The translations under genes were made by a program, and so were the position numbers. The notes under the pieces were generated by a model that saw nothing but the letters and a program-made list of their open reading frames with translations, had not been told where the DNA came from and searched no databases. 31,122 bases of DNA from a virus, in the IMG/VR virus record IMGVR_UViG_3300045988_093071, positions 1 to 31,122 of that record, one strand, 5' to 3'. Below, piece by piece: positions 6,203-30,683 of this stretch. Position 1 is the stretch's first letter. Every line of letters starts with the position of its first letter.

Positions 6203-6252
6203 TGTCAGTTTTTATTTTTTCTTAGTACTTTGAGTGAGTAAAAAACTTGACA
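6203..6252. repeat. 50-nt palindromic element, copy D (TGTCAGTTTTT ... AAAAACTTGACA)
   Basis: It starts 1 nt after the stop codon. It has the same 50-nt length and architecture as the copies at 14164, 19289 and 27872. Both arms carry the same changes relative to the other copies (TGTAAC becomes TGTCA(A)G). Confidence 0.8.
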
Positions 6253-6278
6253 TTAAAGGAGGCTTAGGTCTCCTTTAA
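6253..6278 (+). terminator. Intrinsic terminator hairpin
   Basis: TTAAAGGAG-gcttaggt-CTCCTTTAA is a 9-bp stem followed by a T-rich tract (ttattttaat). It ends the fibre/LRR operon. Confidence 0.7.
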
Positions 6279-6354
6279 TTATTTTAATACATTAGTAAAT
6301 TAGTTTATATTTTAAGAAAAAGATATGTAAAACTAATGTAAATTGCTGTAAAAT

Positions 6355-6747
6355 ATGAATTATACTCTATTAATGCAAAATACAACTACTAAAGAAGTTT
6401 ATACATTTGATCTTGAAAATCAGAATTATTCTGAGAATATCTACTATAAGTTTGATATTACACTTCAAGAAGGAATGAGAGACGGTGAATATCAATATAT
6501 TTTATTTACTAATCCAAATAAATTTCAAGTTATAGTTGATGTAAACAATCCATTTAGATCAGAGTTATATGGCAATCCAGTTATTCTGGTTACATATAAT
6601 AATACTCTTACTAATGGTACTCAGATATTAGTTGCTGGTAAACCAATACCTATATTGGGAACAGGATTAATAAGAATTGGAGATTATGAGAATAATAATT
6701 ATCAATACGACAAACCTAATACATACGTAAGTTATGAGCGAAAATAA
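6355..6747 (+). CDS. Hypothetical protein (130 aa)
   Basis: Intact ORF and first gene after the terminator. I recognised no motif. Confidence 0.5.
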   Translation: MNYTLLMQNTTTKEVYTFDLENQNYSENIYYKFDITLQEGMRDGEYQYILFTNPNKFQVIVDVNNPFRSELYGNPVILVTYNNTLTNGTQILVAGKPIPILGTGLIRIGDYENNNYQYDKPNTYVSYERK

Positions 6748-7825
6748 AACAAAAGTTCAGTTAAGTGCTATTGATCCATTTATTGCAAGTAATATCGTAT
6801 TACCTACAGAAACTAAAGTAAGAGGAAAAGATTATGTAATGTGAGGAGAAGATAATAAATATCCATTATATCTATGGGATCTATATTTAAATGTAGCTAC
6901 TCTTCAATCTATCATTAATGGTACTGCTGACTTTATTGTTGGTAACGATGTTAAATGTAATGCTCCAGGATTTGAAGTAGTTGTAAACAAGAAAGGTGAG
7001 ACTATTATGGATATTATGCGTAAAGTATCTAAAGATAAGATGATTTTTGGAGGATATGCTTTACAAATAATTAGAGATATGTTAGGTAGAGTTTCAGAGA
7101 TCTATCATCTTGACTTTATGAAGATTCGTTCTGATGAAAAGAATGAAGTATTCTATTATGCTGATGATTGGTCTGCTTGGTCTATTAAAGCTATCAAATA
7201 TCCAAAATTTAATTATTCAGATGATAATCCTACAAGTGTTGTTTATAATAAGGGTTATATAACAAGAAAAGTATATCCAGTCCCTGTTTATGGTGCAGCT
7301 ATCCTATCTTGCGAAACTGAGAAGAATATTAATGAGTTCCATCTAAATTCTCTTCATAATGGATTTATGGGCAATCTTATCATTAACTTTAATAATGGAC
7401 AGCCTACAGACGAAGTTAAAGAAGAGATTGAGATGAATATCAATGAGAAGTTCTCTGGTTATCAGAATGCTGGTAGAGTTCTTATTTCATATAATGATGA
7501 TGAAACAAATAAGACTACTATTGAGCGTTTAGATTCTGATGATTTTGATGAGAAATATAGTGCTTTATCTGATAGGACAAGAGAACAGATATTCTGCGCA
7601 TTTAGAGCTAATAGTGTACTTTTTGGCCTTAACTACTCAAGTGGATTCAACGAACAAGAATTTAATGAAGCTTTTAAACTTTATAATCGTACAGTAGTTA
7701 GACCAATTCAGGTCGAAATAGTAGATACATTTGATAAGATATTTGGAATGAAAGGTTCAATAACTATAACTCCTTTTAGCTTAACTCCAAATGGACAAGA
7801 AGATAGCAAACAAAATGTTGAATAA
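6734..7825 (+). CDS. Portal protein, PBSX/P2-like size class (363 aa). In-frame TGA at 6842-6844.
   Basis: ATG 6734 is in frame with track ORF 7007..7825. The N-terminal ..KYPLYLWDLYLNVATLQSIINGTADFIVGNDV.. resembles the conserved N-terminal block of PBSX-family portals. The family call is from memory. Confidence 0.6.
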
Positions 7826-8423
7826 TTATACTGTTTATTGCCATATAAATAAGTATAACAATAAGCTATATTTTGGCATTACTGGACAAAGTGTGCAAGC
7901 TAGGTGAAAAAATGGATATGGATACTCTACTCAAGCTTACTTTTATAAAGCGATACAAAAATATAGCTGAGATGGATTTGAACATATCATAATTAAAGAT
8001 AATTTACCAGAAGCTTGTGCTAAGACATTAGAAAGGATATTGATACATAAATATAAAACAAATACTCCTGAAAATGGTTACAATATAACATCAGGAGGAG
8101 AAGGTACATACGGGTATTCTTTTTCTAATGAGAGTAGAGCAAAAATGTCAAATTCTAAAAAAGGTAAAACACCCTGGAATAAAGGAAAGAAAGGAATCTA
8201 TACTTTGGAAACACTTATTAAAATTGGAAATGCTTCCAAAGGACGAATTACTAGAGTTAAGCCTATATTAAGATTTGATATGAATGGGAATTTTATTGCA
8301 AGATATAATTCAATGAAAGAAGCTGTTAAATCAGTTAATGGAGAACGTTCTGGATTATATTTAGCTTTAAAAGAAAATAGACCTTATAAAAACAATAAAT
8401 TTATTTATGATGGAACAACTTAA
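7815..8423 (+). CDS. Free-standing GIY-YIG homing endonuclease 1 (202 aa). In-frame TGAs at 7905 and 7968.
   Basis: It reads MLNNYTVYCHINKYNNKLYFGITGQSVQARWKNGYGY...KYSWDGFEH...NITSGGEG, followed by NUMOD3-like SxExRxKxS/GKxPWNKGKK repeats and a C-terminal DNA-binding-like tail. The start overlaps the portal stop by 11 nt. Confidence 0.85.
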
Positions 8424-9096
8424 CTATAGAAATGTACTGCTTATTTCAGAAGACTATATAAAGTCAAATTCTACATTAGATAACAATATATCGGGTAAAT
8501 ATTTACAAGCAGCCATCACAAGTGCTCAAGATGTAGAACTTCAGTCAACTATTGGTACTAAGCTATTGGAAGCATTACAAAAGAAATGTATTAATTGGAT
8601 TGATCCTCATACTCCAGTTCATCCAATAGAGCCTCCTGAGCCACTTCCAAGTGATTCTATTGATGATTCTGATAACTACAGATATAAAGAGCTATTAGAC
8701 TATTATGTTCAGCCTTATTTACTTTATCAAGTACTTAGTGAGATAGTAATTCCTATATCTTATAAGCTTGGTAATTTTGGAGTTATGAGAACTGATGATG
8801 AGAAGGATATTGCTGCTGAAGCAAGTCAAGTAAATCAAATTAAGAAGTATTATAGAGATAAGGCGGATTTCTTTAAGACTCGTTTACAGGACTTTATAAT
8901 TACATATTATAATGAATTCCCTGAGCTTTATACATATAAGCCATTAAAGGATATGTTTCCCAATCTTTATTCTAGCTCATCTTGCAATATCTGGCTTGGT
9001 GGTGCAAGAGGTAAAGGATGGAGCATTAAACCTGGAGAGGGACCTCTTCAAAGAGCTTATGATTTCCCTTCAAGTAATAATAAAAAGAGTAAGTAA
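8407..9096 (+). CDS. Hypothetical virion protein, possible head-tail connector or adaptor (229 aa)
   Basis: It lies next to the portal region. The N-terminal I..DYI...S.L..NI....L..AI..AQ...L...LG..L pattern resembles gp6-like connector proteins. This is weak evidence. Confidence 0.35.
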   Translation: MMEQLNYRNVLLISEDYIKSNSTLDNNISGKYLQAAITSAQDVELQSTIGTKLLEALQKKCINWIDPHTPVHPIEPPEPLPSDSIDDSDNYRYKELLDYYVQPYLLYQVLSEIVIPISYKLGNFGVMRTDDEKDIAAEASQVNQIKKYYRDKADFFKTRLQDFIITYYNEFPELYTYKPLKDMFPNLYSSSSCNIWLGGARGKGWSIKPGEGPLQRAYDFPSSNNKKSK

Positions 9097-9098
9097 TT

Positions 9099-9524
9099 AT
9101 GACCTACTATGAGATAATTAGCAATTTAAAAGCTTGTGCATTAGAAGAGCCAAACATCAATTTTGTAGGAAGTAAAGACATTTATGAGTTAAATAGCTTA
9201 CCAACTATTGAGTATAATGTGTTCTATATAACACCTAATACTTTTAGTGTAGATGAAGATACTATTACTTACTCTTTAAACCTATACTTCGTATCAAGAT
9301 GGGATGAGACTGATAACAACCAATTGGAGGAACAGTCAGCAGGTATGCTTGCACTGCAAAATATAATTAATCGTTTTAATAACCTATATCCAGAAGTTGA
9401 AATAGCTTATCCTTTAATTTATACTCCATTCTATCAAAAGTTCAAAGATATTACCTGTGGAGTGTTTGTTAGAGCTGATTTCCAAGTTGACAACACATTA
9501 GGCTTATGTCAAGACAGTATGTAG
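9099..9524 (+). CDS. Hypothetical virion protein (141 aa)
   Basis: Intact ORF ending in TAG, tightly coupled to the upstream gene. Confidence 0.45.
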   Translation: MTYYEIISNLKACALEEPNINFVGSKDIYELNSLPTIEYNVFYITPNTFSVDEDTITYSLNLYFVSRWDETDNNQLEEQSAGMLALQNIINRFNNLYPEVEIAYPLIYTPFYQKFKDITCGVFVRADFQVDNTLGLCQDSM

Positions 9525-10090
9525 TTTATATTCATACTTTTCCAAATGGGAAAAGATATGTTGGATTGACTACTCAATCAGTAAATAGTAGATGAAGAGG
9601 TGGAGAAGGATATAAAGATCAATTTGTTTATAAACCAATTAAAAAGTACGGTTGAAACAATATTAAACACACTATTTATTATGTAAATAGTGAATCAGAA
9701 ATGAAATATCTTGAAAAATACTTCTTTAGCTATTATAATACTACAGATTTAAGATTTGGTTATAATAGAACTGACACAAGTAATCATCCTATAGTTTCTA
9801 ATGAAACTAAAGTTATTATTTCTGAATTTGCTAAAACTAGAATAGGAAATAAAAATCCATTTTATGGTAAGCATCATTCGGAAGAAACTAAGGAATTAAT
9901 ACGCAAGAAAAATCAAAACTATGGAACTAAAGCTATTAGTCAATACACTTTAGATGGAAGATTTATAAAATCTTATAAAAGTATAAGATCAGCAGCAAGA
10001 GAGTTAAACATAACTTCTTCTTTAATATCTTCAGTTTTAAGTGGTAGGCAAAAACAAACTAAAGGATATACCTTTAAGTATAATATGTAA
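9506..10090 (+). CDS. Free-standing GIY-YIG homing endonuclease 2 (194 aa). In-frame TGAs at 9593 and 9653.
   Basis: It reads MSRQYVVYIHTFPNGKRYVGLTTQSVNSRWRGGEGY...KKYGWNNIKH, followed by NUMOD3-like repeats and a C-terminal AARELNITSSLISSVLSG helix-turn-helix. The start overlaps the upstream gene by 19 nt. Confidence 0.85.
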
Positions 10091-10746
10091 TGGAAAATAA
10101 ATTAAACTGGTTTGGAAAGGTATTAGAATGAGTAGATAAATATGGATTACTAAAGATATTTAAAGCAGGGATTGGATTAATATTTATATCCTATGTAATG
10201 GTTATTACACTTAATCCCTCTATTGTTTATAATAAGGTTGTAACCTATATTGAACAAACTCACAATTCTAAAACTATTGCAAGAAATGAAGCAACTTTGA
10301 AGATTAAATATAAGCTTAAAGAATTGCTTCAAAGTACCAATGCTGATAGAGCTTGGGTTATTGAATATCATAATGGAACTACTGGATTAGGAGGACTTCC
10401 ATTTACTTATGGAGTAATGAATGCAGAGGAAGTAAAACCAGGAATAAGATCTGTAAGTAGCCATTATAAAGACTTCCTGTTATCTGACTATACTTCAATT
10501 ATAGAGTTTTCTAAGAATGATGGATGGTTTGGTAATATAGATAGTTTAGAAGCAGATGATCCAAGATTATATTATGCATTTAAATCCAACAGAGTGAATG
10601 AAATAGCAGTATTTTATTTAAAGACTGAGGATAAAGATATTGGCATTTTAGGTTTATCATTCTGTGATACACCTATGCCTTATGATACTTGAGTACATCT
10701 AAGAAGAGCTGGAATACAGATAAGTATAATTTTAAATAAAATATAA
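10090..10746 (+). CDS. Membrane-anchored protein of unknown function at the head of the lysis cassette (218 aa). In-frame TGAs at 10129 and 10690.
   Basis: ATG 10090 (TAATG overlap) is in frame with track ORF 10198..10692. There is an N-terminal TM segment (GIGLIFISYVMVITL). The true stop is TAA at 10744-10746. Confidence 0.6.
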
Positions 10747-10747
10747 T

Positions 10748-10909
10748 ATGAAATATTGGTTAAAATATGTAATTGCAGTAGTTATTATTCTGCTGATATG
10801 TTTACTAATCAAAGTAATTCCTTTTTGGATTACTGTAGTATTACTTGTAATAGGTGTGGCTTCACATCTATTTTATAGATATGTTATGATTAAAGATATA
10901 CTTAAATAA
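10748..10909 (+). CDS. Holin candidate (53 aa, two TM helices)
   Basis: It reads MKYWLKYVIAVVIILLICLLIKVIPFWITVVLLVIGVASHLFYRYVMIKDILK. It lies immediately upstream of, and overlaps (TAATG), the endolysin gene. It is below the ORF-track size cutoff. Confidence 0.55.
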   Translation: MKYWLKYVIAVVIILLICLLIKVIPFWITVVLLVIGVASHLFYRYVMIKDILK

Positions 10910-11361
10910 TGAAGTATTTCACACTCGAAGAATTAACAAGATCTGATACTGCTTCAATTAAGCATATAGATAACACTCCAGATGAGAGTATAACAGAGCA
11001 CCTGATAGAGTTGGTCGAGAAGCTTTTAGACCCAATAAGAGAGAGATGGGCAAAGTATTGTGATGACAATCAGCTTGGCAATGCAGGCATCAGGATTTCC
11101 TCTGGTTTTAGGAATAAGGAGCTTAATAAAGCAGTGGGAGGATCTTCAACTTCTGCTCATTTAACAGGGTATGCAGCAGATATATCTCCAATTAATGGTA
11201 ATATGAAAGTATTCCAAAGTTGGATTGCTGAAGCTATCGAAGAATTTGATTTCGACCAGTTGATATATGAAAGGCCTAGGAATGGTATAGCTAGTTGAAT
11301 ACACTTGGGATTAAAGAATAAAGACGGGATGCAAAGACGACAGAAATTTACTATTATATAA
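10909..11361 (+). CDS. Endolysin, peptidase M15 (zinc D-Ala-D-Ala carboxypeptidase-like) family (150 aa). In-frame TGA at 11296.
   Basis: It reads ..SSGFRNKELNKAVGGSSTSAHLTGYAADI..FDQLIYE.. and then, past the TGA, ..SWIHLGL.. This supplies the C-terminal W-x-H strand typical of this family. Confidence 0.85.
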
Positions 11362-11363
11362 TT

Positions 11364-11933
11364 ATGTTTTACTATTGTTATAAAATTTATTTAACTGCTG
11401 GCTCATTGAGAGGAAAATATTACATTGGTAAGCGTATTTATAAAGGAAAAGACCCATATAAAGATCCATATAAAGGTTCTGGTAAAATTATTAAGAACTA
11501 CTATAAAAGATTTCCTAATGCATATAAAAAAGAAATAATTGCATTCTGTAATGATTCAGATGAATTATCTAAAAAGGAGTATGAATTAATAGGAGATAAA
11601 TGGGAAGTAGATCCAATGTGTTTAAACTTGAAGCCAGGAGGAGAAGGAGGCAATTACGGAGTCAAATTTAATTCTGAATGAAAGAAGAAACTGTCTAATT
11701 CTAATAAGGGAAAGAAACATAATTGCCCAGAATCTTGAAGAGTTAAAGTAGATGCTCATAACAAACAAAGATGTCGTAAAGTAGCTCAGTATGATTTAGA
11801 TGGTAATTTTATTCAAGAGTATGAAAGTTGCACAGAAGCAGCCAAATCTGTAGGAACTGATAGAGGAGCTATTAGTAGAGTATGTGGTGGATTAGCAAAT
11901 ACAGCTAAAGGATTCAAGTGAAGATATGTTTAA
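11364..11933 (+). CDS. Free-standing GIY-YIG homing endonuclease 3 (189 aa). In-frame TGAs at 11679, 11736 and 11919.
   Basis: It reads YCYKIYLTAGSLRGKYYIGKR...GSGK...E...NLKPGGEGG, then WKKKLSNSNKGKKH repeats and a C-terminal AAKSVGTDRGAISRVCGG helix-turn-helix. Confidence 0.8.
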
Positions 11934-11943
11934 TAAAAAAGAA

Positions 11944-11969
11944 AAGGAGGGCAAATAACCCTCCTTTTT
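11944..11969. terminator. Bidirectional intrinsic terminator between convergent operons
   Basis: AAGGAGGG-caaataa-CCCTCCTT is flanked by an A-run upstream and a T-run downstream. Confidence 0.8.
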
Positions 11970-11971
11970 GT

Positions 11972-12112
11972 TTATTCCATTATCTCAAATAATTTCTCAT
12001 CTTTAGGTATTAATTCTCCAGTTTGTAAATCTACTAAGAATTTACTATTTTCAGGAATTACATAAACGTAATTTATTCCATTTAAGCATAATTTATATGT
12101 AAAGTACTTCAT
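11972..12112 (-). CDS. Micro-ORF (46 aa), hypothetical
   Basis: It reads MKYFTYKLCLNGINYVYVIPENSKFLVDLQTGELIPKDEKLFEIME. It abuts the terminator and is the last gene of the leftward operon. Confidence 0.4.
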   Translation of the reverse strand: MKYFTYKLCLNGINYVYVIPENSKFLVDLQTGELIPKDEKLFEIME

Positions 12113-12113
12113 A

Positions 12114-12248
12114 TTAGTCAATATATGTTGCGTTAGGAATCTCTGGTTTTTCTTCTACTTCTTCCCAAACTAACCCTTTGTTTTGGTTTTCTAATTGAAC
12201 TATTCTATATTCTAGTTCTTTAAGCTTTTTAAATAAAAAATCATCCAT
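12114..12248 (-). CDS. Micro-ORF (44 aa), hypothetical coiled-coil peptide
   Basis: It reads MDDFLFKKLKELEYRIVQLENQNKGLVWEEVEEKPEIPNATYID. It is packed with 1-2 nt spacers to its neighbours. Confidence 0.4.
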   Translation of the reverse strand: MDDFLFKKLKELEYRIVQLENQNKGLVWEEVEEKPEIPNATYID

Positions 12249-12250
12249 AA

Positions 12251-12463
12251 TTAATCAAATTTTGAAATAAATGTAAAATCTCTTTGTGCTAATACTCTAT
12301 CTATAATATCTCCTAATTTCTTAGAATTCTCTTTAAATTCATTCATTCACTTATCAAACTCTTTAATAGTATCTTCTGACTTTTTAAGAGTTTCTTTAAT
12401 ATCCGCAATTCTATTTAAATATGAATCTTGGTCTAATAATAATGTATCCTTTGCTTCTAACAT
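12251..12463 (-). CDS. Small ORF (70 aa), hypothetical. In-frame TGA (plus-strand tca at 12347-12349).
   Basis: It reads MLEAKDTLLLDQDSYLNRIADIKETLKKSEDTIKEFDKWMNEFKENSKKLGDIIDRVLAQRDFTFISKFD. The start overlaps the helicase 3' end. Confidence 0.4.
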
Positions 12464-14129
12464 CCTTTTCAGTTTTAGTTGATTTTCTAACTTCAAAATA
12501 GTGTTCAATATCTGTTGCCTTTGCAGTTTTCTTTATACCTAAAGTCTTATATACATCAGCAATCCTATTCTTTAATAAAGCTAAATTGTAGAACATACCA
12601 TTCTGAATATCTCTTGTAAGTAATTTGGCAACCTTATTTGGCATATTTTTATCTGATATTTTAACAAGTTCCTCTTTAATATCTTTAATGCAATAACCCA
12701 AAGTTGCCATTCTTTCAAATCCCAGTTTATTAATTGCATCATTTAACCAAGGATATTTAATTAGAGCTTCATTTAATATAGGAGTTCCAACTTTAAATTT
12801 AGTTTCCCATTCAGCTCTTACATCTTTAATAAGCTCCTGAAATGACTTACTAGGAGCTTCAAGGTCTATCTTAATAGATTTATCTTCACATTCAGCAACC
12901 TTTATAAAGCCATTCTTTAGATATTCATTAGTAAGATTAACTCTTACAGAGTATAAACCTCTTGCAACCTTAAAATTGAATATATCTACTTTAGCCATAT
13001 TTGGGTCAAATTCAAAGGTATAATCCTCATTAATTTGAATATATGTGTCACTTGTAAAGTCTGTAATCTTCTTACGAGCTACTTCTGGAAGCTGATTGTA
13101 TGATTCAACTGCAATCTTTGTTTCTTCAATATTCTTTAATGTATTATTTTTAAATGTATCATAATCTATCTCTGCATATCTTGTGGCTGAATAAAGATGA
13201 GTAATCCAATTTAAATATTTACTATTTCTAATTCTACCAGCAATCTGTTGAATTGAAGTAGATATATCTAAAAGAGTCTGAGCTTTAGAGGAATCACTAA
13301 CTACAATAATTCTTCCATTTTCATCATAAATATCAGAACCTTCAAATACAGTAGAAGTCAATAAATTAATCTTCTTAGGTTCATCATTTACTGAAGAATT
13401 CTGAATTGGCAGTTTAGTTCTATTATTCTTAGAATATACTACTCTTGTGTTATCTGCTGTAAGTTTAGCCTTTAAAATAAGATTCTTTATAAAGTCAACA
13501 GAGTTAACAAATATATAAGCATTACCTTCAACATTTCCACTTAAAAATCCATTTATAAGCTTAATTGTGGAAGCTTCTACATTCTTGCATTTAACAGTCT
13601 GAACTTTAGTCTCAATAACATCATCCCATTCTTGTCTTACTAATGGCAATTTAGACAATTCATCTAAAACAAATTCATCTTCTAAGGGAGTAGCAGTCAT
13701 AAATGTATATTCTTTAAATAAGCTATATGTCTTTAATACATCTTTAATTGCGTCTCTTCTAAGACTATATTGATTAAATAGTATATGATATTCATCAATT
13801 AATAGGCTATAATCTTTAGGATTTACTGCTTCTATTACTTTATAAAGAGAATTATAAGTAACAATGATTTTAGGGCATTTAACTGAAGATATATAAGCTT
13901 CAATATCTGTCTTAGTAACACCTTGATAAACTCCAAAAATAGGCTCTTTACGTCTTTCATTAGGATATTGAGCAAGTTTATTCTCAACTAAACTTACAAA
14001 TGGAACACATATAACATAAGGCTTATCACACTCTAAAGCCATTGAAGTTCCACCACATCCTACTTTACCTTTGTCAAATAAGCAGTTAGTAGGTAATTCA
14101 TTGATTAAATTATTTAAATAAGTTTTCAT
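12411..14129 (-). CDS. SF2 (DEAD/DEAH-like) helicase with a C-terminal domain of unknown function (572 aa)
   Basis: Walker A is DKGKVGCGGTS, Walker B / motif II is LLIDEYH, motif III is MTATP, and motif VI is QQIAGRIRN. There is no in-frame TGA. Confidence 0.8.
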   Translation of the reverse strand: MKTYLNNLINELPTNCLFDKGKVGCGGTSMALECDKPYVICVPFVSLVENKLAQYPNERRKEPIFGVYQGVTKTDIEAYISSVKCPKIIVTYNSLYKVIEAVNPKDYSLLIDEYHILFNQYSLRRDAIKDVLKTYSLFKEYTFMTATPLEDEFVLDELSKLPLVRQEWDDVIETKVQTVKCKNVEASTIKLINGFLSGNVEGNAYIFVNSVDFIKNLILKAKLTADNTRVVYSKNNRTKLPIQNSSVNDEPKKINLLTSTVFEGSDIYDENGRIIVVSDSSKAQTLLDISTSIQQIAGRIRNSKYLNWITHLYSATRYAEIDYDTFKNNTLKNIEETKIAVESYNQLPEVARKKITDFTSDTYIQINEDYTFEFDPNMAKVDIFNFKVARGLYSVRVNLTNEYLKNGFIKVAECEDKSIKIDLEAPSKSFQELIKDVRAEWETKFKVGTPILNEALIKYPWLNDAINKLGFERMATLGYCIKDIKEELVKISDKNMPNKVAKLLTRDIQNGMFYNLALLKNRIADVYKTLGIKKTAKATDIEHYFEVRKSTKTEKDVRSKGYIIIRPRFIFK

Positions 14130-14163
14130 AATAGTAATTTTTAATAAGTTAATAAATTTTATA

Positions 14164-14213
14164 TGTAACTTTTTTTATTTATCTTACTACAAAATATTAG
14201 TAAAAAAGTTACA
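14164..14213. repeat. 50-nt palindromic element, copy A (TGTAACTTTTTT ... AAAAAAGTTACA, 12-bp perfect stem)
   Basis: It lies 35 nt upstream of the helicase ATG, inside the predicted helicase leader. The architecture matches the other three copies. Confidence 0.8.
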
Positions 14214-14231
14214 GTAAAGGTTAAAATTAAA

Positions 14232-14248
14232 CTGGGAATTAATCCCAG
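14232..14248. promoter_or_regulatory. GC-rich hairpin CTGGGA-attaa-TCCCAG with T/A-rich flanks (possible attenuator in the helicase leader)
   Basis: Perfect 6-bp stem. On the minus strand it is followed by TTTAATTTTAA. Confidence 0.45.
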
Positions 14249-14287
14249 CTCAATTTTCAATATGGAAGTAGTTTTAGTTTGATAGTA

Positions 14288-14319
14288 CAAAGATAATACA
14301 TAAAATTTCAATTTCCAAA
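14288..14319 (-). promoter_or_regulatory. Bacteroidota-type promoter P-left-1 (TTTG-N20-TATCTTTG on the minus strand)
   Basis: On the plus strand, CAAAGATA at 14288-14295 and CAAA at 14316-14319 are separated by exactly 20 nt. This matches the -33 TTTG / -7 TAnnTTTG consensus. Confidence 0.6.
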
Positions 14320-14376
14320 TATTTTTGCAATTATTTTTAATAAATTTTTTATTTATTATCTCTTACTTTCATAGTA

Positions 14377-14408
14377 CAAATATACAACATTATTTTTAAA
14401 TCTCCAAA
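14377..14408 (-). promoter_or_regulatory. Bacteroidota-type promoter P-left-2 (TTTG-N20-TATATTTG on the minus strand)
   Basis: On the plus strand, CAAATATA at 14377-14384 and CAAA at 14405-14408 have a 20-nt spacer. It lies 89 bp from P-left-1 within an imperfect direct repeat. Confidence 0.6.
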
Positions 14409-14456
14409 TATTTTTATGAAAAATTTTAAATTTTTTTTGAAAAAGTTGTTAAAAAA

Positions 14457-14488: not shown

Positions 14489-14533
14489 TATTACAATAAA
14501 AGACATAATATTAACAATTAAACTTTATAAATT

Positions 14534-14773: not shown

Positions 14774-15210
14774 TGAAAACAGATATAAGAAGCTTAGTCT
14801 TTATAAAGAATCTATTTAAAGATAAATATAATATAGAAATAGAATGATGTAAAGACGATTATTCCAGATATGATGGAACATTTACTTGGAATAATATAGA
14901 TTATATAATTGAAGTTAAAAGGAGAAGATTTAAATCCGATAAATATCCAACTACAATTATAAATAGGGATAAGTTTGATATACTTAGTAAATGTAACTCT
15001 ATATTAGTCATTATATTTGATGATGGAGTTTATATTTATAAAGATGTAAAAAGAGCTTTTATTAAAGATTCAATGAAATATGGAAGAAGTACAACTGATT
15101 TTGGAGGAGAATATAAATACTCTTTAAAAACAGAGTTATCTTTAAAGAAAGCAATTAAATTAGAAATAGACACAACTTTTAGTAATTATATAAGAAATGA
15201 CGACATATAA
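14773..15210 (+). CDS. PD-(D/E)XK-like nuclease-fold protein (145 aa). In-frame TGA at 14845.
   Basis: The ATG overlaps the upstream stop (TAATG). It reads ..IEWCKDDYSRYDGTFTWNNIDYIIEVKRRRF.., giving a D...E-V-K catalytic-type motif. It is missed by the ORF track because of the TGA. Confidence 0.4.
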
Positions 15211-15688
15211 GGCAATACCTGGATATGAAAACTATTTAATAGGAACTGACGGTTCGGTCTGGAGTACTAGAACCTCAGTTCCGAAAAATATCAAACCTCA
15301 ACTCCAAAATAGTGGATATTATTATGTTACTTTATATAATCAGTTTGGGCAAAAGAAATATCTAATACATAGACTAGTGGCAGAAGTTTTCATAGGTAAA
15401 AGTGACTTATGTATTAACCATAAGGATGAAAATAAGCTAAATAATAACTTAGATAATTTAGAGTACTGTACTTATGAATATAACAATAATTATGGCAGTC
15501 ATAATATTAAAGTAGGAATTTCTCATAAGAAAGCAATTAGACAGCTATCATTAGATGGAAGTTTGATTAAGAGATGAGATTCCGCAATAGATGCTGAACG
15601 GGGACTTAATATACAATCCAGAAACATTGTAAAAGTTCTTAAAGGTCAGCGAAAAACAGCTGGAGGGTTTATTTGGGAATATGAATAA
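15197..15688 (+). CDS. Free-standing HNH homing endonuclease (NUMOD4 + HNH_3-like, 163 aa). In-frame TGA at 15575.
   Basis: It has YKAIPGYENYLIGTDGSVWS (NUMOD4-like), HRLVAEVFIG...INHKDENKLNNNLDNLE (HNH), and a C-terminal AIDAERGLNIQSRNIVKVLKG helix-turn-helix after the TGA. Confidence 0.8.
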
Positions 15689-15989
15689 CAATGAAATAAT
15701 AGAGAAATACTATCCGTTTATTATGGAGTTAAAAGAAAAATTTGGTGCAGATGACGATTGCACACAAATGGTCTGCATTGCACTTCTAGAAACATCTAAT
15801 TCCAAGCTTCAGTCATTAGATAGTAAGAATGAGCTGAAGTATTGGATTACAAGAGTATTTAAGAATAATTGGTTTTCTAAGAATAGTAGATACTATTACC
15901 AATATAAAAAGTACTATGAAATATTTAAAGAGCCATTAGAACAACAAACGGATAATTTAGAGGATTGGTTAAATGAAGCAGAAGATTAA
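15681..15989 (+). CDS. Sigma-70 region-2-like protein (102 aa), N-terminal piece of a two-piece sigma-like factor
   Basis: The pattern IIEKYYPFIMELKEKFGADDDCTQMVCIALLE...LKYWITRVFKNNWFSKNSRYY matches the ECF-type region 2 layout (..y.p.i......g...d.d..Q.v...l......W..ri..N...d..R). Confidence 0.5.
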   Translation: MNNNEIIEKYYPFIMELKEKFGADDDCTQMVCIALLETSNSKLQSLDSKNELKYWITRVFKNNWFSKNSRYYYQYKKYYEIFKEPLEQQTDNLEDWLNEAED

Positions 15990-16218
15990 TATTGATGATT
16001 TATTAATTGAGTATAACTTTGAAATAGATACCTTTACAGAGATGGATGATAGATTACTTGCAATTTATCCGAAATGAGAGGCATTAAATAGAGCAGATAA
16101 GACTATAATTATCTTATATGCTGAATATCGAAGTTATAGAGAAGTTGGGAAGATTCTGGGAATTAGTCATACGACTATTCAGAGATTTATTAAACAAATA
16201 AGAGAGAGATTATGTTAA
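15973..16218 (+). CDS. Sigma-70 region-4-like HTH protein (81 aa), C-terminal piece. In-frame TGA at 16075.
   Basis: It reads ..YPKWEALNRADKTIIILYAEYRSYREVGKILGISHTTIQRFIKQIRERL, a region 4.2-type HTH. It is in the +1 frame relative to the upstream piece, overlaps it by 17 nt, and has a TAA directly upstream of its ATG in its own frame. Confidence 0.55.
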
Positions 16219-16538
16219 GCATACTTTTTATAGCTATTATTCTTGTCTTCTGCATTGATTTATCTGGAGCTATGGACAAGGCAAATAGATGGGTATGAAG
16301 TAAACTATATCCTGGAGTTAAATATACTGATTGGTCTATACCTTTATTTGGATGTTCTCTATGCTGCACTTGGTGGGCAAGTTTACTATATATCTTAGTA
16401 ACTGGACAATTAAGCTTCTTAATGATTGCATATATTGCTTTAATTGCATTTATGACTCCAGTTATAAAGGATTGTATGATTCTAATTAAAGATATGATTA
16501 CCAAACTAATAGATATAGTTTATAAATACTTGGATTAA
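16212..16538 (+). CDS. Membrane protein (108 aa, about 3 TM segments, CSLCC motif). In-frame TGA at 16296.
   Basis: It reads MLSILFIAIILVFCIDLSGAMDKANRWVWSKLYPGVKYTDWSIPLFGCSLCCTWWASLLYILVTGQLSFLMIAYIALIAFMTPVIKDCMILIKDMITKLIDIVYKYLD. It replaces the antisense track ORF 16190..16504. Confidence 0.6.
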
Positions 16539-16560
16539 AAATAATATATTTTAAATAAAA

Positions 16561-16893
16561 ATGAAAGAATTAACAAAAGAACAGTATGAATATTTAAGTA
16601 AATTCGATAATAGGTTTAAATGTGCTGTTAGAGCTAACTATTGTCGTAATATCCAAAAGGAAGATACTGAAAGAATGAGAGCTATTTATGAGGAACTAAT
16701 AGAGCAGCCATATAAAATGAATATAAACTGCGGAACTTGTGTTCTTAACCTTATAAAGAGACTTGGAGTTTACTACTTTGAATATGTTGAAAAACTAAAA
16801 ACTATTGAGGATGAAGGAGCAAATAAAGAAGAAAGTAGGGAGACCGAAAAAGGCAGAGGTAGAAAAGGAACAAATAGACGAAGTAAAGACTAA
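16561..16893 (+). CDS. Hypothetical protein with Cys pairs (110 aa)
   Basis: Intact ORF with CAVRANYC and CGTC motifs and a Lys/Arg-rich tail. The last 83 nt overlap the next gene in another frame. Confidence 0.45.
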   Translation: MKELTKEQYEYLSKFDNRFKCAVRANYCRNIQKEDTERMRAIYEELIEQPYKMNINCGTCVLNLIKRLGVYYFEYVEKLKTIEDEGANKEESRETEKGRGRKGTNRRSKD

Positions 16894-17254
16894 ATATCTT
16901 TATGCTGCAAGGTTATTTAATAAAGGATGGTCAAGAAATAAAGTAAGTGAGGAACTTCAAAGTAAATATAATGTAAGCCAATCAACAGCTGCAAGATATA
17001 TTGGAGAAGCTTATAAGATAATTGCTGAAAAGAACGATAACCTTATAAAAAACCTTAGACATATACAATTATCAAGATTGGAATCATTACTGGATACTGC
17101 TATTAGTAAGGGAGATATTAGAGCTGCAAATGAGATTATTAAGACTATAAATAGTATGTTTGGATTAAATCAACCTGAGACTATTGTAGCTATTCAGAAT
17201 AATGAAGTCCAGTTTAAATTTGGAGATCCAATTAACAATGACAAAAATATATAA
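16811..17254 (+). CDS. Terminase small subunit candidate (147 aa from ATG 16811; the track uses TTG 16805)
   Basis: It has an N-terminal KKKVGRPKK and the HTH-like KVSEELQSKYNVSQSTAARYIGEAYKII. It lies directly upstream of, and overlaps, TerL. Confidence 0.5.
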   Translation: MKEQIKKKVGRPKKAEVEKEQIDEVKTKYLYAARLFNKGWSRNKVSEELQSKYNVSQSTAARYIGEAYKIIAEKNDNLIKNLRHIQLSRLESLLDTAISKGDIRAANEIIKTINSMFGLNQPETIVAIQNNEVQFKFGDPINNDKNI

Positions 17255-18485: not shown

Positions 18486-19287
18486 TGAATATAGCAACTA
18501 AATGGGAAGACGTAAGTCTTAAACAATATGAAGCTCTAATGGAGTTTATAAACAGTAATGCAAAGATGACTGATTTAGATAGAAGTATTGAGATATGTGC
18601 ATTACTTTCAGATGATCCAGATAAAACAAGAGATGCTCTTTTGAGTATGGGATTAGATGAATTAGCTACAGAACTTAGTAAAGTTCAATTTATAATCAAT
18701 AAATACAAAGCTAAGGCTCCAGAAACTGAATATACTATTGCTGGAGATAAATATACTGTACAATTAAATATTAGGCAGATGACTGCTGCTCAATATATAG
18801 ATTTTCAGAACTTTTATAAAGACTATCAAAAGAATTTTAAATATATCTTTTTATGCTTCTTAATTCCAAAAGGTAAGAAATATAATGAAGGCTATGATTT
18901 AATTGAACTGGCAGATAAGTTATATGATAAAATTCCAATTACTGTCATAAATGACATTATGGTTTTTTTTTGCAATCTATTAGCCGCATTAACGGTCAGT
19001 ACCCTAATCTCTTCAATAAGGGAGATGAAGAAGATGCTGAAGAAGGAGAAAGATCCAGTGAAGAAGTATCAATTAAGGAAGATGATCGTTCAGTCTCGGA
19101 AAACAGTGAGTTTGGTGCAAAATGGAACTGGGTTTGTTGAATAGACAGAGTTAGTGAAGTTACAAGATTAAATTGGCATCAAGTCTATGATATGTATATT
19201 CAAGAGTTTCTTAATATTATATGTTATCTAATAGATAAAGGAAATGAAGAAAAAAGACAAATAGAAGAGTGAAAGAGGAGACACTAA
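18485..19287 (+). CDS. Protein of unknown function with a -1 frame change at a T9 run (18963-18971). The zero-frame product is 219 aa (stop 19142-19144). The -1 product is 267 aa (stop 19285-19287) with two TGA=Trp codons (19138, 19270).
   Basis: The slippery heptamer T_TTT_TTT is in the zero frame. The -1 frame is open for 105 codons and reads ..DEEDAEEGERSSEEVSIKEDDRSVSENSEFGAKWNWVCWIDRVSEVTRLNWHQVYDMYIQEFLNIICYLIDKGNEEKRQIEEWKRRH. It ends 1 nt before element copy C, exactly as gene 5230..6201 ends 1 nt before copy D. Confidence 0.6.
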
Positions 19288-19288
19288 C

Positions 19289-19338
19289 TGTAACCTTTTT
19301 ACTCATATTTGGTACTAAGATAATATAAAAAAGTTACA
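19289..19338. repeat. 50-nt palindromic element, copy C
   Basis: TGTAACCTTTTTA ... TAAAAAAGTTACA starts 1 nt after the -1-frame stop codon. Confidence 0.8.
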
Positions 19339-19366
19339 AGGGAGTAAAAATCTCCCTTGCTTTTTG
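19337..19366 (+). terminator. Intrinsic terminator
   Basis: CAAGGGAG-taaaaat-CTCCCTTG is an 8-bp stem followed by CTTTTTG. Confidence 0.8.
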
Positions 19367-19405
19367 TATAGCTACTAATATTCAGAACAATATATTTTAT
19401 AAAAA

Positions 19406-19885: not shown

Positions 19886-19887
19886 AA

Positions 19888-22092: not shown

Positions 22093-22093
22093 A

Positions 22094-25000: not shown

Positions 25001-25543
25001 TCTACTTTAGGTAAATACATAGAAGTAAGTGACCCAGAAGTTACTGTAGGGTATGAAGCTGGAAGTAAAGTTGTAACTATAGAATCTAATGTTCCTTGGA
25101 AAGTTAGTTGGTATAATAATTTGAAGATTACAAATATTTCACCAATGGAAGGATTACCTGGAATTAGTACTATGACTATTGAATATAATGAAAATCCTAA
25201 ATATATTGAAGATAACTTCTATTTAAGTTTAGTAGCTCAATCTGATATTTATGAAAGATTAGGACAAGTATATTTTTATCAAACTCCTGATCCATCTAAA
25301 TCAGTAAAGCTTTCTGGAAAAGTAACAGATGCAGATGGTAAAGTATTAGATGTACAACCTTATATCTATGTAGATAATGACAACTTTGTAGATAGTACAT
25401 ATTGTGATGCAACAACTGGAGAGTACTATTTATATGTTCAAAAAGGAGTTCCATTCCATTTTGAAGTACAATTATCAAGTGTTGTTAAATATGAGGAAGA
25501 ACTTACTTTAAATGCAGATACTATTAAAAATATTACTATTTAA
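22094..25543 (+). CDS. Very large tail tip or baseplate protein (1149 aa) ending in BACON-like and CarboxypepD_reg-like domains. In-frame TGAs at 23123, 23738 and 24035.
   Basis: Track ORFs 22094..23125, 23225..23740 and 24044..25543 share one frame with clean linkers. The C-terminus reads ..VTVGYEAGSKVVTIESNVPWKVSWYNNLKITNISPMEGLPGISTMTIEYNENP.. and then ..LSGKVTDADGKVLDVQPYIYVD..DATTGEYYLYVQKGVPFHFEV.. Confidence 0.7.
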
Positions 25544-25545
25544 AT

Positions 25546-27861
25546 ATGGCTGAAGAAATTAAAAAGGTAATAGATATAGATACTACTAAAAGTACAAAGT
25601 CAATCAAGCAGCTACGAGAACAAGTAGCTGGCTTGACTGACGAACTTGAATCATTGGAAATTGGTAGTTCTGACTATTCCAAAAAACTTGAAGAGCTTGT
25701 AAGTGCACAAAACAAGCTTAATGTAGCTACTGAATCTATGCAAGGTAAGACTGTAAATGCAGTTAAAGCTTTTGATAGTATTAACCAAGTAGCTGGCGGT
25801 CTTGCAGGTGGAGTTTCGGCTGTAAGTGCTGCATTTACTTTATTTGGAAGAGATACAGAGAATCTCCAGAAAACTATGGTTAAGCTTCAAGCAGCTATTG
25901 CTATAGTTCAAGGAATTGGAGGATTAAAGGGTTTAGGTGAAGGTGTTCTTAATGGAGTAAAATCATTTAAGGCTTTATCTGTTGCGATGGCTGGTGCTAC
26001 GACTGCTACTGGAGGTTTATCTGTTGCGATGGGAGTGCTACGAACTGCTATTATATCAACAGGTATTGGAGCATTAGTAGTAGCATTAGGAATGTTAGTA
26101 GACTTTGCAATCAAAGCAGCATCTGGAGTTGATGATTTAAAAATTAGTATTTCAGGGTTAAAAGACATAACAGACCAATGAGGAACTAGCTATGCACAAG
26201 CTAATACAGAAATTGCAGGATTAGAAAGACAGAGAGAAAGAGATTTAGCTGAAGGTAAAAAGAATGAAATACAAATCTGAAAGGATTATGCTCAAGCATT
26301 AGGTGAATTAGATGCTAAATTATTCCAGCAATTTGGAAGTGTAACTAAAGCATATAATGATTCATTTACAGATATACTTAAGAGTAATAAATACTTCAGA
26401 AAAGAGTTTAAGAAATCTGGATATGACACTTGGGAGGAGTATTCACAAGCTATACAATGAGGATTAAAAACTAGTTCTAATGAAGTTGATTTCTTTTTAA
26501 GTAAGTTAAATGATGATCAAAGAGCTGCTTACGACGAAGCTTCTGGTATCTACAATGCATATATAGAGAAGAGAAATAGTTTAATGCAGAAAACTTCAGA
26601 AACTTATGAAAAGATTAAACTGATGGAAATCTCTGCAGAGCGTAAAGCCAGAGAAGAGGCTAAGGCTAACTATCTAAAGAATATTGAAGATGCAAAGAAA
26701 CGTAACGCTGATTTACTGAAGGTTATCAATGATTTCTATGAAGAGAATAGAAAACTGCTATTAGATGATGAAGCTAGAGAGTTAGATGAATTAAATACCA
26801 AATATCAAAATCAATTAGATGCTCTTAAAACAGCTAAAGATAAAGAGCTTATAACAGTTGAGGAATATAGAAAGAGATTAAAGCAAATAAATGATGCTTA
26901 TGATAAAGAGTATCTAGACAATCAGAACGAGCGGTATCGTAAAGAAATTAATAATAGAATTAATTCTTTAGAACAACTTAGAGAACGAGAGAATAGATTT
27001 TTTGATCAAAGGCAATCTGAGTTAGATACTAAATATAATAAGACATATACACATAATGCAGGTCTTGGAAACGAATACAAGACTGCGGGAGATATAAAGA
27101 GTGAAAAGAACGATAGAATAACACAATCTAATGAGCTACTTGAAATACAGTTAGGATTCTACGAAAGAGATAATAAAAGAATTGGAGAATTACAAACCAC
27201 TTTAAAAGAATCGTTTGATAATGGCTTAATAACTCAAGAAGAGTATAATAATGAGTATGCAAGATTAAATGCAGAAAGAGAAGCAAATGATACTGCTGCT
27301 GCAAATGCTATTGTAGCTAATGGAGAAAAAATAAAGGCTGCTAAAAAAGATGAAATTAAAGACATTGTAGCTGCTGTTCAAGGAAGTTTTGCTGCATTAG
27401 GAAGTTTAGGTGATGCTGTAGCTCAAAACTATAAATTTGAGGCAAATAATTCCAAGAAGTCATTAAAGGAGAGAGAAAAAGCTATGGAAAATTATAAGTC
27501 TATAGCTAAAATATCTACCGTATTTAATACCGCTTCTGCAGCAATGAATGCTTATAACTCTATGGCAGGAATTCCAGTAGTAGGTCCTGTATTAGGTGGT
27601 ATTGCTGCTGCTGCAGCTATTGCTATGGGATTACTTCAAATTAAAAATATTGAAAATGAAGAAATATCTGGTAGTGATGTATCATCTTCAGTATCCGCTC
27701 CATCTGCACTTACACAAGCTCCTGTTGAGTATACTCGAAATTTACTTGGAAATAAAGAGACTGATGAACTTAATAATCCAGTTAAGTGTTATGTTGTTGA
27801 ATCTGATATTACTTCAGCTCAAACTAAGGTAGCAGTTACTGAATCTAATGCTTCATTCTAG
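25546..27861 (+). CDS. Tape-measure-like protein (771 aa; coiled coils plus Gly/Ala-rich hydrophobic segments). In-frame TGAs at 26179, 26278 and 26458.
   Basis: Track ORFs 25546..26181 and 26584..27861 share a frame with no TAA/TAG in the 400-nt linker. Features are long heptad-like segments, GGLAGGVSAVSAAFTLFG and IPVVGPVLGGIAAAAAIAMGLL hydrophobic blocks, and a TAG stop. Confidence 0.5.
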
Positions 27862-27871
27862 AAATGTTTAA

Positions 27872-27921
27872 TGTAACTTTTTTATTCTTATTAACTACAA
27901 AATATGAGTAAAAAGGTTACA
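27872..27921. repeat. 50-nt palindromic element, copy B
   Basis: TGTAACTTTTTTA ... TAAAAAGGTTACA lies 10 nt after the TAG stop. Its loop is nearly identical to that of copy A (CTACAAAATAT[TG]AG). Confidence 0.8.
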
Positions 27922-27973
27922 TTAGATATTCTAAAAATATTACAAATTTATAAAGTGCTATATATTAATAAAA

Positions 27974-30674: not shown

Positions 30675-30683
30675 CAACAGAAG

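Follow-up and report, generated by a model that had tools for sequence, protein, structure and literature searches.

The palindrome and its described counterparts

Repetitive extragenic palindromic (REP) sequences and bacterial interspersed mosaic elements (BIMEs), described so far mainly from bacterial chromosomes, are short imperfect palindromes which occur in either orientation in non-coding, transcribed gaps at operon ends or between cistrons, often within ~15 nucleotides (nt) of a stop codon, and which form G·U-containing RNA hairpins and have homogenised copies. A 50-nt palindromic element that resembles them in these respects, presumably including transcription and hairpin formation, is present four times in a virus sequence of 31,122 nt, IMG/VR record IMGVR_UViG_3300045988_093071, which was analysed over its whole length and is referred to here as the window. 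REP sequences, however, are ~35 nt in length and are present in tens to hundreds of chromosomal copies together with a RAYT (TnpA-REP) gene, whereas the present element is 50 nt long, belongs to a phage, and occupies fixed syntenic junctions in only four to five copies. Furthermore, it is without a 5′ GTAG-type tetranucleotide, its stem is very A/U-rich and its loop long, no RAYT transposase was found in the window, and no bacterial copy was present among the 120 species-genome matches listed in the search detailed below.

The PeSL (promoter-early stem-loop) cassettes of T4-type phages are repeated, conserved, AT-rich regulatory sequences that combine a stem-loop terminator or attenuator containing G·T pairs with a sigma-70-like promoter, occupy the interval between the upstream stop codon and the next ATG, number ~50 copies, and have been proposed to undergo recombination shuffling (PMC2839356, PMC4122927). 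At two junctions of the window (those of copies D and C below) the whole gap contains palindrome, GC terminator, and promoter-like motif, but the 50-nt element is a separate unit upstream of the terminator, without a complete promoter and in four to five copies, and a role as recombination joint is unsupported by the block-end test presented below. The RNase III hairpins of phage T7 and of the early mRNA of B. subtilis phage SP82 form similar families of ~50-nt intercistronic sequences located just after stop codons in polycistronic messages. Some variants of the element, such as B and the L016-type copy of C, reach ~19-22 bp, against the ≥20 bp (about two turns) expected of such a site; many others have only 11-15 contiguous pairs and a ~20-nt loop, the element is inverted at one junction, and at another it occupies a position from which a sense transcript would not be expected. 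The inverted copy also sets the element apart from lambda nutR and HK022 put, which resemble it as RNA hairpins after a stop codon and upstream of a terminator, with copies alike within a phage and differing between relatives; neither boxA/boxB nor a two-stem put structure is present in the element, no N-like protein was found, and the operons considered here each apparently have their own promoter, which would leave read-through unneeded. Because at least one defining feature of REP/BIME, PeSL, and RNase III hairpins appears to be lacking in each comparison, the element is placed outside every named family; it is a short intergenic palindromic repeat tied to the ends of transcription units, and not a categorically new system. 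The first-pass annotation, which was made from the sequence alone, had likewise known of no described element that matches, and a permissive Rfam scan (E up to 1) returned nothing on the copies, its only match in the window being a sub-threshold sraA at 11878-11976.

The four copies recognised in that annotation, each of 50 nt from TGT to ACA, were all recovered at their original positions, as follows (genes are numbered g1 onwards, and strand refers to the canonical orientation defined below):

6203..6252, + strand: copy D, arms TGTCAG/CTTGACA; covariance-model score 71.1 bits on + and 25.8 on -
14164..14213, + strand: copy A, arms TGTAAC/GTTACA; 58.8 bits on +
19289..19338, - strand: copy C, inverted; 64.9 bits on - and 29.0 on +
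27872..27921, + strand: copy B; 60.6 bits; GC hairpin absent 3′ of the copy

The pattern TGTAAC-N36-40-GTTACA has three exact matches (A, C, and B) against 0.00 expected from 100 shuffles, and a covariance model trained on 32 distinct variants collected from relatives gave, with filters off, only four strong matches in the window (58.8-71.1 bits). Since the training set held the window copies or identical ones, the model scores express internal consistency, and it is the exact-pattern shuffle count that serves as the independent statistic. The next-best model match, at 25531-25572 (20.3 bits, E 0.07), overlaps coding sequence at the junction of g32 and g33 and is probably noise. All four copies reside in non-coding gaps. 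Their originally reported distances from stop codons hold if TGA is read as a sense codon (translation table 4) but not otherwise: on this reading, the g7 stop occupies 6199-6201 and D runs from 6203, the g29 stop occupies 19285-19287 and C runs from 19289, and the g33 stop occupies 27859-27861 with B beginning 10 nt after it, at 27872. Copy A, which borders the divergent early region on its left, is separated by 34 nt from the ATG (14129) of the leftward gene g18 and lies upstream of it, a placement which is kept in all clades (26-35 nt from the g18 ATG).

While the four sequences are indeed copies of one repeat, the common orientation that had been assumed for them did not hold, as C runs opposite to A, B, and D, its reverse complement displaying 90% identity to A and 90% to B. 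The flipped copy is easily overlooked because the centre, [CG]TAC, and the arms look alike in both directions; indeed, it is only because of this near-palindromic centre that every copy has [CG]TAC about 16-17 nt after its left hexamer. Across the variants the central motif is [ACG][CG]TAC, and the invariant positions are symmetric (TGT...TTT // AAA...ACA), with T- and A-tracts flanking the centre. The right inner 10-mer, TGAGTAAAAA, is almost invariant among all variants, its left mirror partner being TTTTTATTT(A/T). The element has a defined polarity, the canonical ("GAGT") strand being that which carries TGAGTAAAAA, and it constitutes a 49-51-nt imperfect palindrome particular to one phage subfamily.

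When IMG/VR and ENA were queried with TerL, portal, and g37, well over 100 loci belonging to the same phage family were obtained (individual loci are given L numbers). Among the 61 loci found with the TerL and portal queries, the element recurs at the same four junctions, namely, g7/g8 (D), g18/g19 (A), g29/g30 (C), and g33/g34 (B). The search of related contigs proposed in the first-pass annotation has thus shown the element to be kept at syntenic junctions; the repeat is real, non-random, and confined to non-coding DNA. Copy D is near-invariant across relatives at g7/g8, and junction C holds a direct (+) copy in the L014-L032 clade and a flipped one in the clade of the window. A fifth copy is carried by one clade (L014, L015, L016, L027, L045, L049, L051, L055, and L061), in which it lies on the minus strand (canonical strand minus), 2 nt after the g18 stop and 20 nt before the g17 ATG, and is represented by the following feature:

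L014 3936-3985, - strand: fifth copy, between g18 and g17

In this clade g18 is, therefore, bracketed by two inverted copies, the fifth being 86% identical to copy A of the same genome; in the window, g17 directly follows g18 with no copy between them. IMG/VR and the metagenome collection gave only TerL identities of ≥82% or ≤47%, plus one short 61% fragment, and relatives with 36-47% TerL identity contained no copy. Of these, the element-free locus L034 has at junction D a GC terminator followed by TAC-N15-TATATTTTA, and L060, also element free, keeps the terminator. A core 18-mer was found in IMG/VR in this phage family only, together with three chance promoter-like matches, and a degenerate pattern applied to 185,579 bacterial and archaeal species genomes gave no true copy among the 120 matches listed. 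The covariance model may be employed as a specific marker of the subfamily.

A different, 45-nt repeat is present in three gene gaps of L280 (TerL identity 40%, 45% GC, TGA apparently sense), at 5329-5373, 11231-11275, and 15847-15891, with the consensus TATATT..TAATATA.AAAA.....GACAA.TC.AAAT and with one copy directly 3′ of the TerL stop codon; it may represent an analogous regulatory cassette.

Arm pairing, probable copying as a unit, and position at operon ends

Copy D had been singled out for a parallel change of both arms. The change is two-sided, but the pairing which results is not clean, as TGTCAG/CTTGACA needs a G·T pair or a bulged T; clean compensatory arm changes are seen in relatives. 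The outer hexamers pair as TGTAAC/GTTACA, TGTCAA/TTGACA, TGTCTA/TAGACA, and TGTCAG/TTGACA (G·T or bulge), and the combinations TGTCTA/TTGACA and TTTAAAG/CTTGACA are broken; the TGTAAC hexamer itself occurs in only 6 of the 32 variants. The stem was scored by means of a hand-written 15-pair structure, RNAalifold having returned no structure on a MAFFT alignment in which arm indels were misaligned. Standard pairs occupy 91.0% of cells, as opposed to 85.5% in shuffled data (none of 500 as high), and the covariation score is 0.122 against 0.033 (0 of 500), with two-sided changes at four pairs; sliding the partner by 1-3 columns gives 45-65% pairing. The exchanges seen among outer pairs are A-T/C-G, A-T/T-A, and C-G/A-T/G·T, and the inner four pairs (A-U, U·G, U-A, and U·G) are nearly constant and are, therefore, uninformative either way. 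Within the inner helix, 82 G·U cells were counted versus 20 A·C cells.

Folding of both strands, another of the checks originally proposed, predicts the canonical RNA to be the more stable in 29 of the 32 variants (mean -11.1 versus -6.3 kcal/mol), as exemplified by D (+ RNA, -11.5; - RNA, -6.9 kcal/mol). Outer-arm wobbles (TGTCAG·T of the D type and T·G of the B type) independently fall on the canonical strand too. The predicted RNA hairpin is ~15-23 bp and A·U/G·U-rich; B, with 16 + 4 pairs, is the most stable of the four (-21.0 kcal/mol, z = -8.75), the L016-L022 copies of C have ~20-22 pairs, and far fewer are present in A, in reverse-complemented C, and in the TGTCTA/TTGACA types. At D and A, element and terminator fold as two neighbouring hairpins.

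The element appears to travel as a unit. Copy C of the window is identical over 50/50 nt to those of L004, L005, L009, L011, and L012, and over 49/50 nt to those of L003, L006, L008, and L010, yet in those loci g29 is only ~56-60% identical and divergence begins immediately outside the element. Window copies A, B, and reverse-complemented C are 88-90% alike, whereas orthologous copies across clades are 66-74% alike, and an inner polymorphism, AAAAGTGAGT versus AAATTTGAGT, is found at A as well as at C, the two sites tending to agree in any one genome; L013 holds three arm types (TGTAAC, TGTCAA, and TTTAAAG). Among 284 informative ends of blocks of ≥93% identity, a handful lie near elements (0 near C and ≤1 near A), most being situated within fibre genes or beside homing-endonuclease genes. 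These identical copies between diverged flanks, the likeness within genomes, the shared polymorphism, and the absence of clustered block ends indicate that the element is copied as a discrete unit, presumably by gene conversion in either orientation, and that it is not the main recombination joint.

A terminator scan agreed with the earlier description of D and C as running into GC terminators and of A as having a GC hairpin beside it:

6252..6279, + strand: GC-containing intrinsic terminator hairpin, abutting D; -15.1 kcal/mol
14232..14248, unstranded: GC hairpin 18 nt right of A, scored as a + terminator in the window; -8.9 kcal/mol
19337..19359, unstranded: bidirectional GC terminator, scored on both strands, overlapping the last 2 nt of C

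For the terminator at 19337..19359, the minus-strand T-tract is contributed by the A-run of C. For the hairpin beside A, minus-strand views of nine relatives were compared, and a clean T-run in L003, L014, L015, L023, L026, L027, and L033 shows it to face leftward, the version in the window and L013 having only TTTAATTTT in place of the T-run; since it faces leftward in most clades, the g18 promoter would be located within or just left of the element. The copies do mark operon boundaries at the four junctions, but the boundary at 11941-11969 and the terminator-plus-promoter gap at 30675-30756 carry no copy, rendering the division of the genome into four transcription blocks too tidy. The element-free terminators (the convergent one at 11941-11969, -16.0 kcal/mol; 30684-30715, -21.3 kcal/mol) are stronger than the element-paired ones (-15.1, -12.9, and -8.9 kcal/mol), a comparison which is anecdotal at n = 5.

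At D and C the stop codon is followed in turn by element, GC terminator, promoter-like motif, and ATG, and at B by element, promoter-like motif, and ATG. The motif in question, (T/G)AC-N15-TATAT(T/A)TTA, has five matches versus 0.41 expected, all on the + strand, and ends 6-9 nt before a start codon in four of the five (g25, g30, g34, and the fibre gene at 30757):

6288..6314, + strand: promoter-like TAC-N15-TATATTTTA, 3′ of both D and the terminator there, with the g8 start 40 nt further on
16527-16553, + strand: promoter-like motif before g25
19373..19399, + strand: promoter-like TAC-N15-TATATTTTA, 3′ of both C and the terminator there, with the g30 ATG 6 nt further on
27941..27967, + strand: promoter-like TAC-N15-TATATATTA, 19 nt 3′ of B, 6 nt before the g34 ATG
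30725-30751, + strand: promoter-like motif before the fibre gene at 30757

At junction C, TAC and the 15-nt spacing are found in three of four flank variants of relatives, the L013/L026 variant having TCC. AC-N15-TATATWTTA is likely the real promoter, separate from the palindrome, and its placement would imply near-leaderless messages. Together, element and motif provide a first transcription map of an unannotated family, with five putative sigma-dependent units.

Because the order of stop codon, element, and terminator at D and C places the element on the upstream-message side of the terminator, and because its polarity agrees with that of the upstream gene and its wobble pairs are strand specific, the interpretation that we rank first, tentatively and at less than an even chance, is that of a REP-like transcribed hairpin at the 3′ end of the message, partner to an intrinsic terminator and homogenised by gene conversion. 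TGAGTAAAAA lies on the sense strand of the gene before it at D, at B, at C in the L014-L032 clade, and at the fifth copy, whose location between g18 and g17 argues against both a strong terminator and a promoter requirement. The element would be transcribed as the tail of the upstream message, just after the last stop codon, and the RNA hairpin would form in vivo 5′ of the GC terminator (D, C, and A) or replace it (B and the fifth copy). Such a hairpin could protect the 3′ end of the upstream message or fix its position, as an exonuclease barrier or an RNase III-type processing site, and might help to insulate operons from one another at modest GC terminators. The copies are presumed to be kept alike by gene conversion acting through the palindromic arms, a process that could also invert an existing copy (as at C) or establish a further one (as at the fifth site). 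Were this the case, a small, abundant, uncultured human-gut phage family would shape its message ends with a self-homogenising palindrome, a dedicated repeat which also insulates operons, and would offer a compact, testable model for the flipping and spread of palindromic repeats by gene conversion.

A number of observations weigh against this proposal. The agreement in orientation extends to four of five informative settings, which is not significant. Copy C was flipped in the clade of the window (the window plus 14 loci) and then kept unchanged, with the consequence that its + RNA contains C·A mismatches; in the context fold, this + RNA forms no element hairpin, the A-run of C pairing with the U-tail of the terminator instead. 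Copy A has no co-oriented upstream gene, and a sense transcript of it would need antisense read-through across g17-g18. Approximately half of the 32 variants are imperfectly complementary in their hexamers; outer pairs are broken in the TGTCTA/TTGACA and TTTAAAG/CTTGACA variants, and folding energies of only -4.6 to -5.9 kcal/mol are seen in some variants. The strand asymmetry is partly circular, as orientation was defined by a G-containing motif. Finally, a hairpin leaves the invariance of TGAGTAAAAA unexplained, and because an A for each G in this 10-mer would pair better, that invariance points to sequence-specific recognition.

Alternative readings of the element

Sequence-specific recognition would be expected of a two-fold-symmetric DNA site for a DNA-bending phage or host regulator, in the manner of phi29 p4 sites or mycobacteriophage stoperators, which we consider possible but doubtful; with the same reserve, the protein may be envisaged as controlling the leftward g18 promoter at A and as using the copies at the late-operon ends as roadblock or upstream site. 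The near-invariant 10-mer, the symmetric invariant positions, and the T-/A-tracts around the centre are consistent with such a site, and an orientation-independent function would explain the stably flipped C. Copy A is directly upstream of g18, where the hairpin, which faces leftward in most clades, leaves the element as the sole upstream sequence for that promoter, and copies are located upstream of three of the five promoter-like motifs. The phi29 p4 sites are inverted A-tract repeats (CTTTTT-N15-AAAATG), and the TGTAAC-type half-site, AACTTTTT, matches the p4 half-site. The p4 sites also share with the element their T-/A-tract inverted half-sites and their positions in a divergent early/late region (compare A) and upstream of late promoters, but the half-site spacing is ~24-26 nt here versus 15, the arms are variable, a terminator intervenes, and no p4-like protein was recognised. 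Stoperators, for their part, are many short asymmetric repressor sites, in a temperate phage that encodes the repressor, rather than a 50-nt palindrome in four to five copies. At three copies (D, C, and A) the element is cut off by a terminator hairpin from the promoter to be served, the promoter motif lies at a variable distance of 19 to 47 nt, a protein reading the arms would have to be very tolerant given up to three arm types per genome (L013), and the consistent ATTTA versus TGAGT asymmetry is unexpected for a symmetric dimer site. A fifth copy would, moreover, block g17, and no candidate protein was found: the proteins scanned included none recognisable as a repressor, and an integrase is unlikely, as the window encodes no protein of ≥300 aa beyond virion, packaging, and g18 products (judged by size only). 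The flipping of C, the gain of a fifth copy, and the termini TGT...ACA are in line with a selfish or neutral quasi-palindrome without dedicated function, a small phage counterpart of REP/MITE (miniature inverted-repeat transposable element) or PeSL-type linkers, which we judge somewhat unlikely and which, just as unlikely, would spread by hairpin-mediated template switching, gene conversion, or recombination between co-infecting relatives. It would account for a discrete unit with 50/50 identical copies amid diverged flanks, for a whole copy inverted at one junction, and for a copy gained in one clade that is 86% like A of the same genome and inverted around g18. The element is absent at 36-47% TerL identity, with the terminator kept at junction D in two such relatives, and this junction in L034, where the promoter motif is kept too, and in L060 indicates that it is dispensable for operon layout. 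The arm "covariation" is no obstacle, since two-sided changes can arise without selection through quasi-palindrome correction. However, only four to five copies at the same four junctions in ~60 loci from diverged genomes are unlike a transposing repeat, neither target-site duplications nor a transposase were found, no copy was found outside the phage family in IMG/VR or among the 120 bacterial matches listed, the ends of high-identity blocks are not concentrated at elements, and TGAGTAAAAA and the central TAC are kept across all arm types. A merely selfish palindrome would be of modest interest.

Readings in which the element is recognised by a sigma factor fare less well still. It is improbable that the element represents a portable upstream half of a promoter, in which the arm is an outward-facing -35 (TTGACA, GTTACA, or TAGACA) and the A-tract an UP element, and no less improbable that a host-type promoter arises wherever a -10 box lies 16-18 nt outside it. 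This reading fits the right arm of B, which gives TTGACA-N17-TATAAT (12/12) in L013 and L027 and TTGACA-N18-TATAAA in L014 and L031, and the left arm of A, which gives GTTACA-N17-TATTAA, TTGACA-N17-AATTAT, and similar sequences toward g18 in every clade; where the core is matched by chance in other phages and bacteria, the sequences are ordinary promoter pieces of the AAAAA-TTGACA kind. Against it, the right arms of D and C meet a terminator and no -10 box, the left arms there face coding sequence, the distance from the arm to the conserved TATTA(A/C) box upstream of g18 varies between 15 and 22 nt, 4/6 matches to the -10 are common at 30% GC, a sigma-70 promoter scan of the window found fewer sites than in shuffles, and the conserved loop and arm pairing are left unexplained. 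The phage does appear, from profile matches, to encode an extracytoplasmic function (ECF)-type sigma factor split into two open reading frames (ORFs). What had been treated as a single product of 15681-16218 is in fact two overlapping ORFs, a sigma region-2-like half, g22 (15681-15989; TIGR02937 positions 4-105, E 3.4e-5), and a region-4-like half, g23 (15973-16218; TIGR02937 positions 113-161, E 3.7e-6, plus Sigma70_r4-like Pfam matches), with both scores under the curated cut-offs; no relative has them joined in one ORF, and in L034 a gap of 10 nt takes the place of the overlap. Given this factor, it is the AC-N15-TATATWTTA motif, and not the palindrome, that would be the natural candidate site for the phage sigma. 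The arms resemble an outward-facing -35-like hexamer, T[TA][GT]ACA, backed by an A-tract, and their core, (T/G)AC(A/T), equals the -35 part of the AC-N15-TATATWTTA promoters. The element might conceivably, though very improbably, be the DNA target of free region-4-like g23, two molecules of which on the inverted hexamers would either keep the sigma-4 half parked or act as a roadblock at operon ends and at the g18 promoter; at the same very low probability, this would be a sigma-fragment insulator or decoy of a kind not known to have been described. The least probable reading, and one that we disfavour, is one of those proposed initially, namely an ECF-type promoter TGTAAC-N17-[CG]TAC for the phage sigma-like factor; the other roles suggested there (terminator helper, RNA stability or processing element, and dimeric binding site) are conceivable, the RNA role ranking first. 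The B. subtilis SigX-type consensus is TGTAAC-N17-CGAC, [CG]TAC does lie 16-17 nt from the hexamer in all four copies, and the split g22 and g23 offer a sigma. Yet the hexamer is variable, AAC being lost in most variants (TGTCAG, TGTCAA, TGTCTA, and TTTAAA), so that the conserved AAC of an ECF -35 is lacking, and no CGT is present in the centre. The hexamer co-varies with the far arm, which a promoter would not need, transcripts would reach the terminator directly 3′ of D and C within ~30 nt, C is flipped in the clade of the window, L034 keeps g22 and g23 yet is without the element, and AC-N15-TATATWTTA, which is conserved in L034, is a far better sigma candidate. The second protein suggested as a regulator, assigned to 16811-17254, is encoded there but starts at 16805, and its position directly upstream of TerL suggests a small terminase, which it looks more like than a regulator; its sole database match is a weak one to a PHROG labelled "Rnase E."

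Several further candidates were considered and rejected. Promoters read in either direction from within the loop (for the ACTCA strand, TTTACT-N17-TAATAT; for the GAGT strand, TG-extended or TAAAAA boxes) have no conserved -10, and their transcripts would hit the terminator or run antisense into the upstream gene. A small ORF through the element (ATG...GAGTAA, 15 codons) is present in B, and D and other copies have no start codon. A mimic of CRISPR repeats (Racr-like) finds no Rfam CRISPR-DR match, and there is one CTAC per strand and no Cas12a-type handle. A rolling-circle nick site (pMV158-type TACTACG) or a Tus/RTP-like replication terminator presumably reflects short resemblances only; no HUH Rep was found, and the orientation misfits an origin at A. 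A MITE would be in keeping with the inverted termini TGT...ACA, but the flanks have no direct duplication and no transposase was found, and a host REP finds no support in the species-genome matches listed, which are scattered chance matches, none with a true left arm or phage genes. The element is also not an intrinsic terminator, as its stems are A·U/G·U-rich with loops of ~8-30 nt and the scan picks the neighbouring GC hairpins instead; no T-run is present 3′ of D, A, or C, and the tail 3′ of B is moderately T-rich.

Genome organization and neighbouring features

An exact 55-nt direct repeat at both ends of the window (1-55 = 31068-31122) points to a genome of 31,067 bp that is circular or has redundant termini, and the fibre gene from 30757 spans the terminal junction into the ORF at 51-878. 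The G+C content is 30.6%. Reading TGA as sense (table 4) turns a fragmented ORF map into dense gene packing, ORFs of ≥80 aa totalling 11,004 aa versus 8,148 aa under table 11. In alignments with orthologues, 140 TGA codons of the window stand opposite TGG (next, 11 opposite GGA), and with the TGA codons of relatives as reference, 438 stand opposite TGG, followed by aromatic codons; because TGG exceeds any other codon by far, TGA is assigned by alignment as Trp throughout the window, early genes g20, g21, g23, and g24 included. A tRNA gene search of the window found none, suppressor tRNA included, and Shine-Dalgarno sequences are absent from its genes. The + strand carries all genes except g17 and g18 (12251-14129), and recognisable products comprise the portal (g9), TerL (g27), a prohead protease (g34), and an M15 peptidase (g15). 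As this last is a peptidoglycan peptidase, the host is probably walled. No host was found by a TerL scan of genome contigs, and the homologues of the major capsid protein (g36), of which there are >4,300 in public assemblies, one being labelled "Major capsid protein [Caudoviricetes sp.]," bear no host names. Several related contigs are annotated as human gut metagenome. At the DNA level, the deposited phage genomes searched contain nothing similar to the window, and TerL identity to named phages is ≤28%. Recoded small gut phage clades of ~34 kb have been described (bioRxiv 10.1101/2021.08.26.457843).

The leftward gene g18 (12411-14129; 572 aa) had been termed a helicase, for which Walker A/B-like motifs (GCGGTS and DEYH) can be discerned by eye but database support is lacking: no match was obtained against Pfam, PHROG, NCBIfam, or PDB sequences, nor by tblastn against L034 and L060, the distant, element-free relatives. 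The early non-coding region at 14270-14400 contains repeats of its own, TTTGATAGTACAAAGATAATAC and TTTCATAGTACAAATATACAAC, plus two occurrences of TCCAAATATTTTT, which are probably host-type early promoters; TTTGATAGTACAAAGATAATAC is identical at 13 of 15 positions to the + strand loop of copy C (GTACTAAGATAATAT), and relatives have CATACT[AG]CAAA[TG]ATAATAC in this region. In the non-coding early region of L034 (7455-7500), GGTTCGAGTCCCTTCCGCACCGC (minus strand) resembles the 3′ half of a tRNA gene, with no ARAGORN prediction, and may be an attachment-site remnant.

The same phage type is present in two very long contigs from different assemblies, IMGVR_UViG_3300045988_175865 (L013/L076/L078; 148,631 bp) and ORSJ01000015.1 (L273; 175,808 bp), in the examined part of which phage genes extend to the contig end, wrapping from g37 to the fibre gene; these could represent a prophage in its host, a chimera, or something else. 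Finally, the 31 kb of the window contain four free-standing homing-endonuclease-like genes:

7791-8423, + strand: g10, homing-endonuclease-like, GIY-YIG + NUMOD3
9506-10090, + strand: g13, homing-endonuclease-like, NUMOD
11364-11933, + strand: g16, homing-endonuclease-like, NUMOD
15197-15688, + strand: g21, homing endonuclease, HNH + NUMOD4

Many similarity breakpoints relative to other loci adjoin homing-endonuclease genes, and relatives carry extra homing endonucleases elsewhere, e.g., in L003 at 5563-5860 (minus strand) and in L026 after g31.

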